DNA of 64,000 nt. It comes from Pseudomonadales bacterium (lineage in GTDB: Bacteria > Patescibacteriota > Microgenomatia > UBA1400 > PJMF01). Below the pieces are notes generated by a model, which had not been told where the DNA came from, ran no database searches, and was given only the letters and a program-made list of their open reading frames with translations. This document shows positions 2,802 through 53,489 of this stretch, piece by piece. The position numbers and the translations under genes are program-made. The DNA is taken from positions 455 through 64,454 of the forward strand of contig JACKFW010000001.1 in assembly GCA_020632265.1 (NCBI GenBank), written 5' to 3'. Positions within the stretch are counted from its first letter, which is position 1. Every line of letters begins with the position of its first letter.

Positions 2802-4496
2802 CTATTTTTTTGATTGTTTTATAACTGCTTTTAAGTATTCAACAAAAATTGGATGTGGTTTTAATGGTTGAGATTTATATTCTGGATGCGCTTGGGTAGC
2901 AAGAAAAAATGGATGTTTATTTTGTGGTAATTCAATCATTTCGACAAAAAAATCGTCTGGTGAAGTCCCAGAAATTATAAAACCGGCATTTTCTAGTACT
3001 TCTCGATATTTATTATTAAATTCAAATCGATGTCTGTGTCTTTCAGAAATTAAGTTTTTATTTTCATCTTTGAAAGCATGGTGTTTTTTATAAATATTGT
3101 GAGCCAGAGTATTTGGTTTCAAAATACAATCGTAGGCTCCAAGTCTCATACTGGCACCTTTACCTTTAATTTTTTGATATTTTTCTTCAAATGGGATGTC
3201 ATGAATAATTGGATATGGAGTTTCTGGATTGACTTCGACAGTATTGGCATCTTTTAATCCTGCAACGTTTCTAGCAAACTCAATACTTGCTAACTGCATA
3301 CCATAGCAAAGCCCTAAATATGGAACTTTATTTTCTCTAGCATATTTGATTGCTGAAATTTTTCCCTCAACTCCTCTTTCTCCCCAACCAATTGGAACGA
3401 TGATTCCATCAACTGATTTTAAATCATTAAGAGCCTTATCTTTTTTTGTTTCTAAGTCGGTGGCTTTAATAAACACAATCTCCATATTTGTATCTGTGTA
3501 CGAGCTTGCAAATTTTAGAGATTCAATCAATGATACATAAGAATCTGTCAATTCATAATCTCCGGTTGCCAAGTATTTAGCTATGATTGCAATTTTTACA
3601 CTATGTTTTTTATTAGCTTTAAACTTTTTGACAAAATTATTCCATTCAGTCAAGTCTGCCTTATTAATTGGTAGTCCAAGCTTAATAAGAACTCTTTCAT
3701 CAAACTTTTGCTCTGCTAATATTGGTGGAATTTCGTAAATACTTTCACAATCTGGATTTGAAATAACATCATCTTTATCCATGCTGCTATAAAAGGCAAC
3801 TTTTTCTTTTCTTTTTTCATCAATTGGGAGCTCGCCTCGTCCAACAATAAAATCTGGTTGAATTCCCATAGAATTCAGAGTTTTAACAGATAATTGAGTT
3901 GGTTTTGATTTCAACTCATTAATATGTGAAGGATTTGGAAAATATGTAACGTGAATATGAATAGTATCTTGAGGTGTCTGAAGATTCATAATACGATAAG
4001 CTTCGTAATAAATTACATTTTGATATTCTCCTGCAGTGCCACCAAGTTCTACCAAACAAATATCATAACCCTCACCAGCTTTTTTAATTCTTTCGATTGC
4101 TTCTTGAGGAATGTATAGCCAGGCGTCAACTGTTGCGCCGTTGTAGGCTAGGTTTTTGGTATTGTCAATAACTTTTGAATAAATTTGACCTAATGTAGTA
4201 AAATTTTTGTGGCCTACTTCTTCACCTAAGAATCTTTCATATGAACCAAGATCTAAATCCGCTTCCAGACCATCTTCACATAAAAAAACGTCTCCGTGCT
4301 CAATGGGATTGATGTTGCCTGAATCTATGTTTAGATAATTCTCACATTTTATGTTGGTGATGCTATAACCTCTATTTTTCAGGAGCAATCCTAAAGATGC
4401 AGCGGTTATACCTTTGCCTAGGCCAGAGAGAACACCTCCTGATACGAAGACATATTTAGTATTTTTAATTGGGGTATTATTACCATGAATGCTCAT
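2802..4496 (-). CDS. pyrG: CTP synthase
   Basis: 564 aa. The N-terminal synthetase domain (YVFVSGGVLSGLGKGITAASLG) and the C-terminal class I glutamine amidotransferase region (GLCYGMQL) are both present. Confidence 0.95.
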   Translation of the reverse strand: MSIHGNNTPIKNTKYVFVSGGVLSGLGKGITAASLGLLLKNRGYSITNIKCENYLNIDSGNINPIEHGDVFLCEDGLEADLDLGSYERFLGEEVGHKNFTTLGQIYSKVIDNTKNLAYNGATVDAWLYIPQEAIERIKKAGEGYDICLVELGGTAGEYQNVIYYEAYRIMNLQTPQDTIHIHVTYFPNPSHINELKSKPTQLSVKTLNSMGIQPDFIVGRGELPIDEKRKEKVAFYSSMDKDDVISNPDCESIYEIPPILAEQKFDERVLIKLGLPINKADLTEWNNFVKKFKANKKHSVKIAIIAKYLATGDYELTDSYVSLIESLKFASSYTDTNMEIVFIKATDLETKKDKALNDLKSVDGIIVPIGWGERGVEGKISAIKYARENKVPYLGLCYGMQLASIEFARNVAGLKDANTVEVNPETPYPIIHDIPFEEKYQKIKGKGASMRLGAYDCILKPNTLAHNIYKKHHAFKDENKNLISERHRHRFEFNNKYREVLENAGFIISGTSPDDFFVEMIELPQNKHPFFLATQAHPEYKSQPLKPHPIFVEYLKAVIKQSKK

Positions 4497-13861: not shown

Positions 13862-14139
13862 ATGAGTACCCCACATCTTCAGGAGTGAACCAGTTTCCCA
13901 TCACCTCCATAATCTTCTCAAGTGAGTTATAAAGTGGTTCCACCCAATTCTGCTCCAGCTCGCATAAATAAAAATCAGACCAAAATGGTCTGTTTTTTTA
14001 TTTATATGAGTTCAAATTGTTAGCGAAGACTAAATTTGAAAAATTTAGAGTTCGCGACGGGAAGGCTGAGCAATAGCGAAGCCACCCTAGTGCAAGTGAG
14101 CGAGTATCACGAGCGAATCGTGAACCCAATCGGGCTTGC
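13862..14139 (+). repeat. Island repeat module B (full-length ~280 bp copy), ending in a degenerate tRNA-Asp 3'-end copy (aacccaatcgggcttgc)
   Basis: It shares ...catcacctccataatcttctcaagtgag...ggttccacccaattc.gctc.ag...hairpin...gagttcaaattgt.agcgaag...ttcgcgacg...gagcgaatcgtgaaccc.atcggg with module C. Confidence 0.65.
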
Positions 14140-14320
14140 CATAAACTAAAAAGACCTATTTATATTTCTTTTTTAACTTAGTTCATAGTATACTTTTAAG
14201 ACTTTTTATTAACTTACACTACTTTAAATATAATTTGAGATCTAAAAACCTCTAGGTCTTTGGGGAGGTAAAGTAAATAATTTTAACTGGTGGGGTTGAA
14301 TAGGCTCTCTAGCTTATTTA

Positions 14321-29051: not shown

Positions 29052-31883
29052 CTATTCCACAATTTTAAATTCTTTGCCAATTTTAAGTTTTGTTCCAGTT
29101 TTTTTTTCAATCTCAGTTTTCCATTTTTCTGGCCATTTAGAAATTTCGATAATAACATTGGTTCCTACCTTGAGACCTGCTTTTTTTCTTAATTTTTGAA
29201 TATTTCTGATTATTTCTCTAGCTTCGCCTTCTGCCTTTAAATCATTATCAATTTTGGTATTCAAAATTACTCTCATTGATTCAGTAGTTCGATGCCAATT
29301 CACTTTTTTAACATTAATTTCATCCGCTAAAACTTGCAGAATTAATTCTGTTGGTTCTGCTAGATTGACATAACAAGTTATTTCTTCAAGAGGTTGTCTG
29401 ACTTTAATTCCCGCTTCACTTCTGAGGGCATGAGATTTTTCAACAACTTTCCTAATTATATCAATTTGTTCTTCTAAGGATTTATCAATTGCTTTCGTGT
29501 CTGCTTGTGGCCAATCTGAGTGATGAACACTTGAGTTTTCATTAACTAAATTGTGCCACATTGTTTCACTAAAAAATGGTGTTATTGGAGCAAATAATTG
29601 AGCAATTTTGATTAAAACAAAACCAAATACTTCTTGAGAAGGGTTAAATTGATCGCGCAATCGATCCCTACTTCTTCTTAAATACCAGGTGGAAAGTTCG
29701 TCAATAAAGCTTATCAATCCCCTACTAGCCTTGAGGATATTATAATTGTCCATATATTTTGTTGTATCTTTAATTAATGAATTTAAGCGACTTAAAATCC
29801 ACTTATCCATCACATCACTTGATTCAGGAGATTTTGCAAGGTTAATTTGATGATCTTGATTAGCATAAAGCTTGTAAAAGGCAAATAAGTTCCACCAAAT
29901 TAAAAATACTTTTTTTCGGACATCGGAAACCTCTTTTTCATTGAAATTAAGGTTTTCAGATTTCATTACCGTAGAACTCATCAGATAAAGTCTTAAACTA
30001 TCAACTCCATATTCGTTTATTAAGAGCATAGGATCTGGATAGTTTTTTTTGGATTTACTCATTTTATTACCATCTTGAGCCAAAATTGTTCCAGTTGTAA
30101 GTATATTTTCAACTGCATTTTTATTAAATATACCTACTGAAAGAACGTGCATGGTATAGAACCACGCTCTAGTTTGAGCAATATACTCACTCACAAATTG
30201 AGCAGGATAAGTATCTTCAAATTCTTTTTTATTTTCAAATGGATAGTGTTTAGAAGCAAATGGCATTGATCCCGATTCTACCCAGCAATCAAATACTTCG
30301 GGAATTCTTGTTCCTTTGATAGTTTTTTTATCATCAATCCAAACTTCAAGATCATCTAAAAACTCACGATGAATGTCATCTATTTTTTCAACTTGTTTTG
30401 GATTTACCGCCCATTTCTTTAGTTCTTCTATTGAACCAATGACTCTAATTTGTTTGTCCTTAGAAATCCAAATAGGCATTGGTGTTCCCCAGTATCTTGA
30501 TCTTGAAATGTTCCAGTCTGGAGCTGTTTCAATACCTTTACCAAACCTTCCTTCTTTAAGATGTTTAGGATACCAATTAATATTTTCATTTTGTTGGAGT
30601 AAGTCATTTTTTAATTTTTGAACATTTATAAACCAAGCCGGAACTGCATTATAATAAAGAGGAGTCGAACATCTATAACAGAATGGATAAGAATGAGTGA
30701 TTTTTTCTTCCTTAAACATAAGACCGCGCCTAGCCAGATCTTCGTTGATTGTTTTTTCTGCATTTTTGTAAAATTTTCCCGCAACAAGTTTGACAAAAGG
30801 TAAAAATTTTCCTTCTTCACTTAGAGTTGGAACTAATGGTAAATCTTTTTTTAAGGCTAAAGCGTAATCATCCTCTCCAAAGATGGCTGCCGTGTGTACA
30901 ATTCCAGTTCCATCTTCCATGCTAACGAAATTTCCAGATAAAATTGACCACGCGTTTGGTTTTTTTGATTTTACGTAGTTAAATAAAGGCTGATAGTGTT
31001 TTCCAACTAATTGTTTTCCTTTTACTGTTTTAACAATTTTGAATTTTTTCTGAGCGAAAACTTGATTGACTAAGTCTTTGGCTACCCATAATAATTCGTT
31101 TTCGAATGCAATTTGAACGTAGTGAGCGTTTTCATCTACTGCCAAACCAACATTACCAGGTAGTGTCCATGGAGTTGTTGTCCAGGCTATCAAGTATTCA
31201 TTTTTATTTTTAGAAGTTAAATCATTTTCATTGATTTTAAATTTTATATAAACCGAAAAATCTTCAACGTTTTCATATGAGTTGTCCATTGCAATTTCAA
31301 AGTTGGATAACGGAGTTGAACATCTTGGACAATACATAACAATTTTTCGACCTTCGTATATTAGATCTTTATCGATTAATTGCTTGAAGCCCCACCATAT
31401 AGATTCCATATATGATTTATCCATGGTTTTATAATTATTTTTAAAATCTACCCATCTGCCCAATCGATCAATTATTTTTTCCCACTCAGTGTCTAATCTC
31501 ATCACTTCTCTATGGCAAGCTTGGTTAAACTTATCAATTCCAAGGTCTTCAATACCCTTTTTTCCGCCTTTTATATCTAATTGTTTCTCTATCATGTTTT
31601 CGATTGGTAATCCATGACAATCCCAGCCCCAAACTCTTTCAACTCTATATCCTTTCATGGTCCAATATCTGGGAATTACATCTTTAGACGTACTTCCAAG
31701 TAAATGTCCATAATGAGGAAGACCTGTGGCGAATGGAGGACCGTCATAAAAAACATAGGATTTTGCTTTGTCTCTCATTGAAACAGATTGTTCAAATGAT
31801 TTATTTTTTTTCCAATATTTTAAGACTGAATCTTCTAATTCTGGCAAGTTTGGTCTAACTGGCATTTGTGATAGTTTTGGCAT
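29052..31883 (-). CDS. ileS: Isoleucyl-tRNA synthetase (type 2, archaeal/eukaryote-like)
   Basis: 943 aa with a class I HIGH region in the PPFATGLPHYGH form and a KMSKS motif. Confidence 0.9.
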   Translation of the reverse strand: MPKLSQMPVRPNLPELEDSVLKYWKKNKSFEQSVSMRDKAKSYVFYDGPPFATGLPHYGHLLGSTSKDVIPRYWTMKGYRVERVWGWDCHGLPIENMIEKQLDIKGGKKGIEDLGIDKFNQACHREVMRLDTEWEKIIDRLGRWVDFKNNYKTMDKSYMESIWWGFKQLIDKDLIYEGRKIVMYCPRCSTPLSNFEIAMDNSYENVEDFSVYIKFKINENDLTSKNKNEYLIAWTTTPWTLPGNVGLAVDENAHYVQIAFENELLWVAKDLVNQVFAQKKFKIVKTVKGKQLVGKHYQPLFNYVKSKKPNAWSILSGNFVSMEDGTGIVHTAAIFGEDDYALALKKDLPLVPTLSEEGKFLPFVKLVAGKFYKNAEKTINEDLARRGLMFKEEKITHSYPFCYRCSTPLYYNAVPAWFINVQKLKNDLLQQNENINWYPKHLKEGRFGKGIETAPDWNISRSRYWGTPMPIWISKDKQIRVIGSIEELKKWAVNPKQVEKIDDIHREFLDDLEVWIDDKKTIKGTRIPEVFDCWVESGSMPFASKHYPFENKKEFEDTYPAQFVSEYIAQTRAWFYTMHVLSVGIFNKNAVENILTTGTILAQDGNKMSKSKKNYPDPMLLINEYGVDSLRLYLMSSTVMKSENLNFNEKEVSDVRKKVFLIWWNLFAFYKLYANQDHQINLAKSPESSDVMDKWILSRLNSLIKDTTKYMDNYNILKASRGLISFIDELSTWYLRRSRDRLRDQFNPSQEVFGFVLIKIAQLFAPITPFFSETMWHNLVNENSSVHHSDWPQADTKAIDKSLEEQIDIIRKVVEKSHALRSEAGIKVRQPLEEITCYVNLAEPTELILQVLADEINVKKVNWHRTTESMRVILNTKIDNDLKAEGEAREIIRNIQKLRKKAGLKVGTNVIIEISKWPEKWKTEIEKKTGTKLKIGKEFKIVE

Positions 31884-32200
31884 ATTTCCTTATGACTTAA
31901 TTAATTTAGTTAATATTAAAAAAGCCCTCTTGTAACTAGTTTATTTTCATGCGCACGACGCATTATTTTTTACTAGTTACAAGAGGGCCTTCAATTCAAA
32001 AAGAATTTTGATGGCGGTTCCACCTCTTTTATTTGAATAGAGGCGTTGATGATTCAACACTTTTTTATTCAAACATCTTATTTCCAGCTATTACGGGCAT
32101 ACCCGAAGAGATCTACTAATTTTGCGATTGGTAAATGATTTGAAATCAATTTATTTATCGCTCAACTTTCTACTCCCACCTTGTTCTGTGATTTCCTTTT
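31884..32200 (-). promoter_or_regulatory. Putative T-box riboswitch leader of ileS (Ile specifier AUC, ultrashort Stem I, transcription-attenuation type)
   Basis: On the minus strand there is a T-box-like AGAGGTGGAACCGCC (rc of 32013-32027). An antiterminator can form from AGAGG / bulge UGGAACC / GCC...GGC / CCUCU. A mutually exclusive terminator follows: a perfect 17-bp stem gccctcttgtaactagt (31924-31940 / 31972-31988) plus a U-run, about 30 nt before the RBS AAGGAA and the ATG. A short upstream hairpin GUUGA-AUCA-UCAAC (rc of 32045-32058) presents AUC+A in its loop. Confidence 0.45.
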
Positions 32201-32226
32201 TATTGGCAGAACTCAAACGGATTTAA

Positions 32227-33021
32227 TTGTGTGCATTTATTATAACACAATTTTCAATATGTTATTATTTAGGGATGATAATAAATACAGATTTACTCAA
32301 ATCTTTAAGAGCGGTAACTTCTGTTAAAGAATTTAATAATTTAATAAAAACTTTTTTTAGTAAAGTAGGCATTCCAATAGTTGTTTCTGGAAGTATCCCA
32401 AAAGCAACGCCATTGCTAGTGATCTCAAATCATCCTGGGGCAATAGATAGTTTTTTATTGTCATCTTATGCAAATCGTGAAGATACATATTTTGTTGGCA
32501 TTGCAAAATTTTCAGTATTTGGTCCGGTGGTAAAAAAAATGCTTCTGCCAATATATATTAAAGAAAAAATTGACGAGAAAATCTTAAATTTTATTTTAGG
32601 TTTTTTTACAAAAGTTGAAAGCAATTCTCAGTATTCTCAAGAGCAAATGAAACAAAAAAATCGTGAATCAATTTCGCGAGCGGCTGAGATGGTTAATCAA
32701 GATAATATGGTGTCAATATTTCCTGGGGGTGATGGTGGAAAATTAATTTCAGGAAGCGAATGGAAAGCTGGAGTTGGGTTTATGGTTAAAGAAATTTCTA
32801 ATCCTAAAACTCAAGTTGTCTTTGTGAAAATCCATGGCACTAAACCAACTGATTATATGATTTTTGCCTCAGAAACTTTGAGAAAATTATTTTATAAACC
32901 TCAGCCTGTTCAAGTAGTTATCAAAGAGCCAGTTCTTTTATCAAAAATAATTAATCCAGCAGAAAATGGACAGTCTATCACTAGATCTTTGGAAGATAGG
33001 TATAATCAGATTTTTGGGTGA
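32227..33021 (+). CDS. Lysophospholipid (1-acyl-sn-glycerol-3-phosphate) acyltransferase family protein
   Basis: 264 aa. The NHPGAIDS motif (HxxxxD) is characteristic of PlsC-type acyltransferases. Confidence 0.55.
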   Translation: MCAFIITQFSICYYLGMIINTDLLKSLRAVTSVKEFNNLIKTFFSKVGIPIVVSGSIPKATPLLVISNHPGAIDSFLLSSYANREDTYFVGIAKFSVFGPVVKKMLLPIYIKEKIDEKILNFILGFFTKVESNSQYSQEQMKQKNRESISRAAEMVNQDNMVSIFPGGDGGKLISGSEWKAGVGFMVKEISNPKTQVVFVKIHGTKPTDYMIFASETLRKLFYKPQPVQVVIKEPVLLSKIINPAENGQSITRSLEDRYNQIFG

Positions 33022-33063
33022 TTTAAGTGACTTAAAAGAAATTTACAAAAATATTGAATTTTG

Positions 33064-33134
33064 AGCGGGTAAGGAGAGTCGAACTCCTCTATCCAGCTTG
33101 GGAAGCTGGCATTCTACCGATGAACTATACCCGC
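33064..33134 (-). tRNA. tRNA-Gly (anticodon CCC)
   Basis: The reverse complement gives GCGGGTA-TA-GTTC-ATCGGTA-GAAT-G-CCAGC-TTCCCAA-GCTGG-ATAG-AGGAG-TTCGACT-CTCCT-TACCCGC-T. Confidence 0.85.
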
Positions 33135-51820: not shown

Positions 51821-53236
51821 TTACTTTAACATGGATATTATATAGCTTTCAAGCTTTTCAATTGATACTCTTTCTTGAATTGCTGTATCCCGGTTTCTTA
51901 CTGTTACTTGTTCATCTTCAAGTGATTCGTAATCTACGGTGACGCAAAATGGAGTACCAATTTCATCTTGATACAAATATCTTTTACCTATATTACCTCT
52001 GGAATCCCAGGTACATGAAAATTTAGAACTTAGAATAGAATAGAGCTTTTCAGCTCTAGAGACTATTTCTGGTTTATTTTTTACTAATGGAAAAACAGCA
52101 ACTTTATAAGGTGCAAGCGATGGTTTTAGTTTCAAAACAATTCTGTTTTTTTCTTTGTCATTAAAATATGCATCTGTTAGTACCATTAGAAATGCTCTGC
52201 CAATTCCAAGTGCGGGTTCAACTACATGTGGCACGAATACTTCATCTGTATGAGGATCTCTATATGCTAATGATTGTCCAGAATACTCCATGTGTTGCTT
52301 TAAATCATAATCAGTTCTATATGCTACTCCCCAGAGCTCTTTCCAACCAAAAGAATAATTGTAATCTAAGTCATAGGTGTCTTTACTATAAAAGCTTCTT
52401 TCAATGTCTGAATGTCTTCTCCACCTAAGATTTTCATTTCTAACACCTAGGTTATTAACGACAAAATTCATCATTTGTTCTTTCCATTTTTCTAAAAGTT
52501 CGTGCCAATCTTGATTTTTTGGATTGAAAAAATATTCAATTTCTGCTTGTTCTAATTCAAATGTTCTAAAAACAAATTGCCCCGTAGTAATTTCATTTCT
52601 AAAGCTTTTTCCTATTTGACCAATGCCAAAGGGAATTTGAACTCTCGTAGAGTCTAGAACTTGTCTAAAGTTTGTAAAAATGCCTTGAGCTGTCTCTCCT
52701 CTTAGATATACTTTGGTTTTTTCATCAGCAATATTTCCAATCGAAGTTTCAAATAACAGATTAAATGATTTCGGATCTGTGACTTTGTTTCCGTCAGGAC
52801 TTAAAATTTCATTTTCTTGGATAAACTTGGCCATTTCTTTTAAACTTAGTTCTTCTATATTGAAATTAATCCATTTGGTATCACCTTTTGCATTTTGATT
52901 CTCCACCCATTCTTCAATTAAGTGATCTGCGCGGTATCTTTTTTTTGTTACAACGTCATCAACCAAAGGATCGTTGAAAGAGCCAACGTGACCGGAAGCA
53001 ACCCATGTTTGGGGATGTAAAAGGATTTGGGAATCAATTCCAACCATGTCAGGGCGTTTATTAATGAATTCATTCCACCACTCGTTTTTAATATTTCTAA
53101 GTAACTCTACTCCAAGAGGTCCAAAATCATATGAATTAGCTAAACCTCCATAAATAGCGGAAGTTTGATATGCAAAACCTCTTCTTTTTGCAAGACTAAC
53201 TATTTCATCTAAAGAAGGTTGAATTGTATCGGGCAT
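51821..53236 (-). CDS. glyQS: Glycyl-tRNA synthetase (class II, dimeric alpha2 type)
   Basis: 471 aa. GFAYQTSAIYGGLANSYDFGPLGVELLRNIKNEWW is a typical glyQS N-terminus, and class II motifs are present. Confidence 0.9.
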   Translation of the reverse strand: MPDTIQPSLDEIVSLAKRRGFAYQTSAIYGGLANSYDFGPLGVELLRNIKNEWWNEFINKRPDMVGIDSQILLHPQTWVASGHVGSFNDPLVDDVVTKKRYRADHLIEEWVENQNAKGDTKWINFNIEELSLKEMAKFIQENEILSPDGNKVTDPKSFNLLFETSIGNIADEKTKVYLRGETAQGIFTNFRQVLDSTRVQIPFGIGQIGKSFRNEITTGQFVFRTFELEQAEIEYFFNPKNQDWHELLEKWKEQMMNFVVNNLGVRNENLRWRRHSDIERSFYSKDTYDLDYNYSFGWKELWGVAYRTDYDLKQHMEYSGQSLAYRDPHTDEVFVPHVVEPALGIGRAFLMVLTDAYFNDKEKNRIVLKLKPSLAPYKVAVFPLVKNKPEIVSRAEKLYSILSSKFSCTWDSRGNIGKRYLYQDEIGTPFCVTVDYESLEDEQVTVRNRDTAIQERVSIEKLESYIISMLK

Positions 53237-53470
53237 TGATTCCTTTAAAACTTAATTTCTATTAATAATACTACTATTATATTTAATTATTTGATTTGGG
53301 AGTCCTGCTAAATACCCTAAATGCTTCTTATACAAAAAAATCCCAAAGCAATAATTGCTTAGGGACCCTGCCGGGCGGTTCCACCCTAGTTCTTTTTTCA
53401 AAGCACTTTATTTTCTTGTTTAATTATGTTCCTTGCCAAAGGGACAACAAGAGATATTTAATTTTAATTA
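53237..53470 (-). promoter_or_regulatory. Putative T-box riboswitch leader of glyQS (Gly specifier GGC, ultrashort Stem I, terminator/antiterminator)
   Basis: On the minus strand there is a T-box-like AGGGTGGAACCGCC (rc of 53375-53388). An antiterminator can form from AGGG / bulge UGGAACC / GCC-CGGCAG-GGU / CCCU. A competing terminator follows: tccctaagcaat-t-attgctttggga plus U7 (rc of 53334-53365). An upstream short hairpin CCUU-UGGC-AAGG (rc of 53431-53442) presents GGC+A. A TATAAT -10 box lies near 53468-53473. The RBS is AAGGAA. Confidence 0.55.
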
Positions 53471-53489
53471 TTATAGCAGATTCTTCCTA

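Follow-up and report, generated by a model that had tools for sequence, protein, structure and literature searches.

According to reviews, transcriptional T-box riboswitches generally need a long Stem I with a platform that binds the tRNA elbow, for fast tRNA capture, and in Actinobacteria a truncated Stem I is associated with control of translation (PMC7583486). The absence of the platform defines Classes III and IV, which 'mostly regulate translation initiation', so it is no ground for excluding a leader from the T-box family (PMC10482949). The ultrashort class is described as translational and exclusive to ileS (bioRxiv 10.1101/2023.02.28.530422). The short-Stem-I model of TBDB was searched in Actinobacteria only, among leaders that RF00230 had already found (PMC7778990). 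Here, we describe the leader of ileS, the gene for isoleucyl-tRNA synthetase (IleRS), in a stretch of 64,000 nt from a Microgenomates-type bacterium of the Patescibacteriota (assembly GCA_020632265.1, contig JACKFW010000001.1, forward-strand positions 455 to 64,454), which we call the window. The leader is a complete T-box of the short/intermediate Stem I type and belongs to a known family, and we are confident that it is a riboswitch through which uncharged tRNA-Ile controls ileS by transcription attenuation. T-boxes are undocumented in this phylum in the open-access literature that we found, with no report of T-box riboswitches in the candidate phyla radiation (CPR), Patescibacteria or Saccharibacteria.

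The ileS gene lies on the minus strand at 29052-31883 and encodes a protein of 943 aa that matches TIGR00392 with 862 bits against a cut-off of 621. In a protein scan of species-representative genomes, the closest IleRS sequences came from metagenome-assembled genomes (MAGs) of Patescibacteria of the Pacebacteria/Woesebacteria type, at 53-77% identity. Of the 19 closest loci, 14 have the element GGUGGNACC before ileS. The preliminary description of this DNA, which had proposed a T-box-like attenuator from the letters alone, would have been refuted by the lack of both a T-box model hit and this element in relatives, and the comparison of ileS leaders found the element conserved. Our comparison set therefore consists of 15 leaders, those of the window and of 14 relatives. 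We observed in them the elements of a T-box, their conservation, covariation of Stem I, Stem II and helix A2, and mutually exclusive folds separated by a difference in energy. The order of the elements is common to all 15. The 5' part holds an extended -10 element, a short base helix and a short Stem I with AUC plus a purine. The Stem II strands follow, with AAGAA(C/A) and (C/G)UAGA, then a near-invariant CGGGUAAGCCCGUAA and a GCNG..AAG linker. The 3' part consists of an optional Stem III, AGAGGUGGNACC, helix A2, CCUCU and a terminator. The whole leader of the window folds with z = -6.2 against shuffles. All its features described below are on the minus strand.

Stem II with its S-turn occupies 32106-32177. 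The lower helix pairs GGGAG (32177-32173) with CUCUU (32110-32106), the upper helix is GAGCGAU...AUCGC, and the S-turn strands are UAGAAAG (32172-32166) and UUAGUAGAU (32119-32111); AGUAG aligns to the Rfam T-box consensus. Among the 15 leaders, four of the five pairs of the lower helix show compensatory changes. Taken together, the lower helix and stem IIA have 94% of their cells paired. Their covariation score of 0.48 compares with 0.14 after shuffling, and none of 500 shuffles reached it. The stem IIA hairpin, CGGG-UAUG-CCCG, lies in the segment 32077-32105, which is likely the IIA/B pseudoknot region. It contains an F-box-like CCCGUAA (32097-32091), followed by the conserved linker GCUGGAAAUAAG (32088-32077). 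This stem IIA/F-box unit is near-invariant in the 15 leaders, and the copy in the window, CGGGUAUGCCCGUAA, aligns to CGG..CCGUUA of RF00230. Furthermore, a Stem II/IIA model built on a leave-one-out basis from the 14 relatives picked out minus-strand positions 32077-32166 as its one match in all 64 kb of the window (52.8 bits, E ~9e-11); the next best reached only 12.5 bits. The design had been called minimal. It is not, given that a full Stem II/S-turn and stem IIA/F-box domain is present.

The Stem I domain spans 32178-32220. Its base pairs are CC (32220-32219) with GG (32180-32179), next to an imperfect, K-turn-like junction, GUUUGA/AA. The lower helix is GUUCUG/CAGAAC (32212-32207 and 32188-32183), and a distal mini-hairpin, CC-AAUAAAAA-GG, lies at 32206-32195; ViennaRNA also predicts Stem I. 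This mini-hairpin covaries in the five closest species, where its stems are CC/GG, UCAGCC/GGCUGA, CCAAC/GUUGG, CCAA/UUGG and CCA/UGG. A single MAFFT alignment of Stem I loses register because two groups of leaders present the codon differently, and we therefore counted the pairs directly. The Stem I helix is fully paired in 15 of 15 leaders, which carry 10 different versions of it; swapping was a weak control here (71% paired), as several of the helices are alike. No distal platform for the tRNA elbow is present. Stem I is confined to 32220-32178 and has no AG bulge/distal loop (IDTM) of a long Stem I.

The Specifier lies in the bulge AA-AUC-A (32189-32194), with AUC at 32192-32190 and the 3' purine A at 32189. 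Its AUC columns are invariant in all 15 leaders and are followed by A in 14 of them and by G in the other. AUC stands about 170 nt upstream of the T-box sequence. In each of the 15, and likewise in three more distant CPR leaders (L026, L048 and L049), its place within the Stem I loop or bulge is the 3' edge. Five leaders, that of the window and those of L001, L002, L003 and L006 as its closest relatives, hold the codon in a 6-nt 3' side bulge, NN-AUC-A, between GUUCUG/CAGAAC and a small distal hairpin of changing but complementary sequence. In the other ten leaders (Group B) it is in an apical loop of 6-8 nt, mostly NN-AUC-R-N. C-ending codons are typically preferred as T-box Specifiers. That this one ends in C in a genome of about 31% G+C was counted as support for the riboswitch.

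The T-box sequence and antiterminator occupy 31982-32030 and include AAAAGAGGUGGAACCGCC. Within them, AGAGGUGGAACCGCC lies at 32027-32013, and the T-box consensus AGGGUGGNACCGCG is matched by GAGGUGGAACCGCC at 32026-32013, with a bulge that starts with UGGN. Helix A1 pairs AGAGG (32027-32023) with CCUCU (31986-31982), and helix A2, which has an extended loop, pairs GCC (32015-32013) with GGC (31989-31987). Between them, the 7-nt bulge UGGAACC (32022-32016) is the predicted pairing site of the tRNA 3' NCCA end. In the 15 leaders 98% of antiterminator cells are paired, against 28-67% in slid controls, and all three A2 pairs are compensatory (GCC/GGC, GUU/AAC and ACC/GGU). The antiterminator model (R1) scores the window at 52.9 bits. 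A T-box core pattern with up to two mismatches matched seven times in the window, with 0.78 expected. The GGUGGNACC-like matches at 4032, 13933, 15074, 58553 and 58959 were rejected; the antiterminator model finds the ileS leader only, apart from a weak 9.9 bits for the leader of the glycyl-tRNA synthetase (GlyRS) gene, glyQS.

The intrinsic terminator (31918-31988) has perfect 17-bp arms at 31988-31972 and 31940-31924, a GC-rich inner stem-loop, AUGCG(U)...(G)CGCAU, at 31963-31949, and a U6 tract at 31923-31918 that ends 27 nt before the AGGA (31890-31887) of the ribosome-binding site (RBS) and 35 nt before the ATG. Its 5' arm overlaps the 3' strands of A2 and A1 through the shared GCCCUCU. 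In nascent RNA up to 31981, the unconstrained minimum-energy fold (ViennaRNA) is the bulged antiterminator, at -13.0 kcal mol−1. In the complete 3' domain the terminator reaches -48.7 kcal mol−1 versus -31.8 kcal mol−1 for the enforced antiterminator, a difference of about 17 kcal mol−1. The fold competition that had been proposed as a check thus lets the antiterminator form in nascent RNA and prefers the terminator in the full domain. The far greater stability of the terminator indicates that the default state is 'off', as in characterised T-boxes, and the RBS is in no alternative helix, which suggests that the output is transcriptional. For each of the 15 leaders we predict a stable hairpin that overlaps the antiterminator 3' strand, and in nearly every case a U-rich tract comes next. 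Most of the anatomy in the preliminary description was confirmed: covariation and fold competition support its antiterminator and 17-bp terminator, the inner stem and the hairpin are present, and the terminator does lie about 30 nt before the RBS. The U tract has six U, not the five given there. The call of a T-box attenuator for ileS itself is borne out by conservation, covariation, the leave-one-out model and fold competition.

We predict that the leader binds tRNA, senses its charging and sets the expression of ileS in the following way. The short Stem I would present AUC (32192-32190) and the purine in the 6-nt side bulge, with no elbow platform taking part. By analogy with solved structures of actinobacterial ileS T-boxes with tRNA, Stem I, Stem II with the S-turn, and IIA with the F-box would form a groove that clamps the anticodon stem-loop. 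If the tRNA is uncharged, its free 3' NCCA end would pair with UGGA in the bulge and stabilise the weak antiterminator, allowing read-through into ileS. Otherwise, the 17-bp terminator would form from the same CCCUCU strand, and transcription would stop at U6, 35 nt before the ATG.

The leader is about 350 nt long, roughly from 32233 to 31884. An extended -10 promoter, TGTTATAAT, was read from the sequence at 32239-32247 and predicts a transcript start near 32233. A simple -35/-10 scan did not report this promoter, and there is no good -35 element at that place; TGNTATAAT-type elements stand equally distant upstream of Stem I in six relatives (L003, L010, L014, L016, L018 and L019). The range of 31884-32200 first given for the leader was too short. 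It takes in the AUC Specifier and leaves outside the 5' strand of Stem I (32212-32207), the base helix (to 32220) and also the promoter. The RBS of ileS, AAGGA, is at 31891-31887, outside the terminator, and the ATG is at 31883. On the other side of the leader lies a divergent acyltransferase-like open reading frame (ORF), and there is no co-directional gene upstream.

The long hairpin could do more than terminate. Its arm is unique within the window, and the five closest species all carry a two-tier terminator in the orthologous position (97.6% of cells paired, two compensatory pairs); the terminators of more distant relatives are of the ordinary kind, with 8-12 bp. By its sequence and distribution, the long terminator is a lineage-specific elaboration, not a repeat element. 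We considered a tRNA-Ile T-box whose two-tier hairpin has an extra role, as an RNase III or other processing site, in mRNA stability, or as a pause or delay. The preservation of the 17-bp stem and the GC-rich inner stem-loop in the five closest species speaks for such a role, as does the distance of about 100 nt between bulge and U tract. There is also precedent, since lineage-specific terminator insertions and RNase III leader cleavage are documented for staphylococcal T-boxes (PMC9177973, PMC7913692). However, the distant relatives manage with their shorter terminators and the sequence data demand no second function, and we consider an extra role unlikely.

Several observations weigh against a tRNA-responsive T-box. 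The bulge reads UGGA in the window and in L015, UGGC in L010 and UGGU in the remaining leaders. Bacterial tRNA-Ile usually has the discriminator A73, which fits UGGU. UGGA would need U73; otherwise, an A.A mismatch would arise at a position known to matter. We found no tRNA-Ile gene in the window or in 20 related loci; the only such genes seen were in two GlyRS loci that are unrelated. In the window, the distal hairpin of Stem I has only 2 bp. The K-turn junction is non-canonical, with GA on the 5' strand and AA instead of GA on the 3' strand (UGA-GUUCUG / CAGAAC-AA-GG); GA/GA is present in L003 and L015, L001, L002 and L006 have no 5' GA, and covariation among the 15 leaders does not demonstrate a K-turn. 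The IIB pairing is weak (GC/GC, between the candidate loop (A)GC and a downstream GC(U)). We found no covariation for it, as the candidate pairing is invariant or mismatched among the 15 leaders. The leader also has no elbow platform, which reviews deem needed for transcriptional T-boxes (PMC7583486), and its RF00230 score of 23.2 bits is far from the gathering threshold of 93.

Some of these features would be expected of a decaying or weakened T-box, in which the UGGA change has uncoupled the leader from tRNA-Ile and left a constitutive partial terminator or a weakly inducible one. UGGA in the window contrasts with UGGU in 12 of the 14 Microgenomates relatives, in three more distant CPR leaders (L026, L048 and L049) and in a Firmicute (L064), and the 2-bp distal hairpin and the AA on the 3' strand of the K-turn fit the same idea. 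Yet all other elements are intact, including a terminator with no mispairs in its arms. Since ileS is essential, strong counter-selection would be expected against placing an uninducible terminator of -48.7 kcal mol−1 before it. In addition, UGGA occurs independently in L015 and UGGC in L010, which suggests that the discriminator base varies in the clade. Decay therefore seems improbable to us, slightly more so than an extra role of the hairpin.

The low RF00230 score also bears on whether the leader is a sensor at all. The Rfam search that had been proposed gave a divided answer. In a permissive scan of the leader, RF00230 was the best family, with 23.2 bits and E = 0.006 on 801 nt, and the alignment takes in the T-box sequence, AGUAG and CGGGUAUGCCCGUAA in the S-turn/F-box region. 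At gathering thresholds, Rfam found four tRNAs only in the window and a T-box in none of 18 related loci. Leaders of two relatives reached 33.3 and 36.0 bits, also below threshold. The alignment deletes 86 model positions of Stem I, and we attribute the sub-threshold scores to the absence of a long Stem I. Such a score, and a hairpin that is unusually long and perfect, would agree with a plain terminator or attenuator, a palindromic repeat or a leader-peptide attenuator with a T-box-like motif. Nevertheless, no gene upstream in the same direction would require a terminator here. The window contains no second copy of the terminator arm, for which reason an origin from a repeat element was rejected, and the hairpin is at the orthologous place in relatives with compensatory changes. 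Leader-peptide attenuation was rejected as well, because the leader contains no ORF with an ATG, an RBS or a run of Ile codons. Together with multi-domain conservation and covariation that match the T-box layout element by element, this makes a leader that is not a sensor very improbable.

The preliminary description had placed the Specifier elsewhere, in a hairpin that we identify as Stem III. Stem III (32032-32073) consists of an outer 8-bp stem, UUUGAAUA/UAUUCAAA, and an inner hairpin, GUUGA-AUCA-UCAAC (32058-32045), 29 nt upstream of GGUGG. Its place just before the T-box sequence is that of a Stem III, and its length and sequence vary among the relatives. Five of the 15 leaders have no Stem III (L002, L004, L005, L015 and L019, with 7-8 nt from the AAG linker to the T-box sequence), and AUCA is found inside it in only three, those of the window, L001 and L006. 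In the window, the 260 nt before the T-box sequence contain four copies of AUCA, and its presence in a 4-nt loop is not beyond chance. In solved T-box structures, Stem III stacks under the antiterminator-tRNA helix. The position of this hairpin and its patchy occurrence, set against the other AUC plus purine, which is invariant in 15 of 15 leaders in a covarying short Stem I, overturn the assignment. A minimal, lineage-specific T-box that reads AUC+A in this hairpin 30 nt upstream and needs no further decoding domain is hardly credible, for although the hairpin is real and stable (-14.3 kcal mol−1) and AUCA is in the corresponding region of L001 and L006 too, that region is Stem III by position and absent from a third of the leaders, seven of the ten leaders that have it lack AUCA, a 4-nt loop is too small for the stacked, anticodon-like presentation of the conserved 6-8-nt loops, AUCA recurs by itself in the leader of the window, and a fully conserved Specifier and a Stem II domain exist farther upstream.

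With the Specifier in Stem I, the tRNA-Ile T-box can be compared with the known classes. Class III leaders, with an ultrashort Stem I upstream of ileS in M. tuberculosis, M. smegmatis and Nocardia farcinica (PMC7583486, PMC10482949, bioRxiv 10.1101/2023.02.28.530422), share with it the ileS target, AUC plus a purine and a short, platform-less Stem I, and ten of the 15 CPR leaders (Group B) have the apical-loop codon too. However, the actinobacterial leaders are described as translational, with a sequestrator that hides the Shine-Dalgarno sequence, whereas the alternative fold of the CPR leaders is an intrinsic terminator upstream of the RBS. The CPR leaders also belong to another phylum, and their apical loops are mostly 7 nt as opposed to the 5-6 nt reported. 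In nine of the ten apical-loop leaders, moreover, the Specifier hairpin and an additional hairpin meet in a three-way junction. Class IV, the intermediate Stem I type of the Actinomyces odontolyticus ileS (PMC10482949), has a Stem II domain and places the codon in a side bulge between two Stem I helices, as do the window and its four relatives. It differs, in a comparison by description only, in that the distal helix of the CPR leaders is tiny (2 bp in the window and 3-6 bp in relatives) and in that they use termination, not Shine-Dalgarno sequestration.

The long-Stem-I classes are less similar. Class I (the Bacillus subtilis tyrS type; RF00230) has the same logic of tRNA-dependent antitermination, but the leader of the window has no long Stem I, AG bulge, distal loop or platform. 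Class II glycine leaders (B. subtilis glyQS) share the transcriptional output, and the glyQS leader of the window is also without Stem II. They differ from the ileS leader, which has Stem II and IIA/B, and known glyQS leaders keep the long Stem I platform. The 'stem Sa' insertion in the terminator/antiterminator domain of the staphylococcal glyS leader (PMC9177973) is a precedent for lineage-specific elaboration of a T-box terminator. It has another position and sequence; in the CPR version, shared by five closely related species, the terminator stem is long and encloses a GC-rich inner stem-loop.

The antiterminator and Stem II models also gave weaker matches upstream of ileS in three other CPR classes, co-located and in the correct order. 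The scores were 15.8 and 25.1 bits, respectively, in Saccharibacteria (L026), 18.6 and 20.1 bits in Peregrinibacteria (L048), and 18.7 and 16.3 bits in Gracilibacteria (L049). By eye, these three leaders have short Stem I hairpins with the loops CA-AUC-A, CU-AUC-AC and AU-AUC-A, S-turn strands, UGGUACC and terminators. The Peregrinibacteria leader in addition has CCGUUA and a clear GACA/UGUC IIB pairing.

The window contains a second leader, on the minus strand at 53330-53477 (the leader itself about 53462-53330), upstream of GlyRS (51821-53236). RF00230 gives it 25.4 bits and fits its discriminator half excellently. Its parts are an extended -10 element, a short Stem I, a 7-nt linker, Stem III, UAGGGUGGAACCGCC and a terminator. 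The short hairpin has UU-GGC-A(A) in its apical loop, and only the 7-nt linker is found where Stem II would be; there is no long Stem I platform. The Stem II model (R2) found no match in the glyQS leader of the window or in a related glycine leader, at 1000-1175 of L166, which comes from the same genome as the ileS locus L005. The latter has a UCAC-CCUUGGCAA-GUGA hairpin, and of the 28 nt of its discriminator core, 27 are the same as in the window. The ileS and glyQS leaders had been described as parallel in architecture. The parallel holds for the discriminator half and the short Stem I and fails for the Stem II module, which glyQS does not have. A glycine leader was found in one of six GlyRS relatives by protein search and contig look-ups, and it was absent in five that are closer than L166. 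GlyRS relatives at 73-83% identity mostly have spacers of 34-93 nt and no T-box, and a metagenome scan gave one close GlyRS relative with no T-box and 75 distant ones, none convincing. If functional, the glyQS leader would be smaller than the T-boxes of every class described so far. From current structural work, an RNA lacking both the platform and Stem II would be expected to bind tRNA hardly at all.

Both bulges of the window, at 32022-32019 and 53384-53381, read UGGA within the identical 12-mer GGUGGAACCGCC, which fits U73 of tRNA-Gly. A tRNA-Gly(CCC) gene with U73 adjoins the acyltransferase/ileS region at 33063-33134 on the minus strand, and its position is kept in two relatives (L003 1718-1789 and L006 1318-1389).

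It is possible, although we put this forward only tentatively, that Patescibacteria as a group regulate ileS by terminator-coupled, platform-less T-boxes and that the glycine leader is the smallest natural T-box architecture. If so, platform-less transcriptional T-boxes would contradict the current argument that the platform is needed for timely tRNA capture. A platform-less Stem I, so far studied in translational switches of Actinobacteria, joined to an intrinsic terminator offers a natural test of this kinetic requirement. T-boxes are textbook regulators of Gram-positive bacteria, and the ileS leader points to their control of an essential synthetase in Microgenomates, Saccharibacteria, Peregrinibacteria and Gracilibacteria. 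The CPR ileS leaders escape the curated Rfam model, and a CPR-specific covariance model would better annotate these reduced genomes. In Actinobacteria, 'many', not all, leaders are translational, as the 2015 abstract of Sherwood et al. is said to put it, and terminator-coupled short-Stem-I leaders may therefore already be known there.

Some further features of the ileS loci were seen. In L001 (2065-2500) and L002 (1305-1761), the T-box terminator is separated from ileS by an additional ORF. The T-box sequence is there 535 and 569 nt from the ileS start, respectively, and the riboswitch would control a two-gene unit. The IleRS of the window resembles MupA/MupB-type enzymes, with 673-680 bits, below their cut-offs. 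After Microgenomates, its next-closest relatives are those of DPANN archaea (48-50% identity), ahead of other CPR classes (42-45%). This ranking, seen with loci L021-L024 and L047, hints that CPR bacteria and DPANN archaea have exchanged genes. Many public MAG records, L002 and L005-L011 among them, clearly belong to Patescibacteria by IleRS and neighbourhood and are titled 'uncultured Pseudomonadales bacterium', probably through an error of taxonomy assignment in the deposit.

Elsewhere in the window, a GC-rich island at 13965-14150 on the minus strand stands out from the AT-rich genome and has a closed multi-branch fold of -59.7 kcal mol−1 (z = -6.5), in which the minimum-energy fold equals the centroid. 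The island gave no Rfam family match. A clean intrinsic terminator forms its end. The island lies upstream of an ORF of 216 aa, itself without a family match, and may be an unannotated small RNA or leader.

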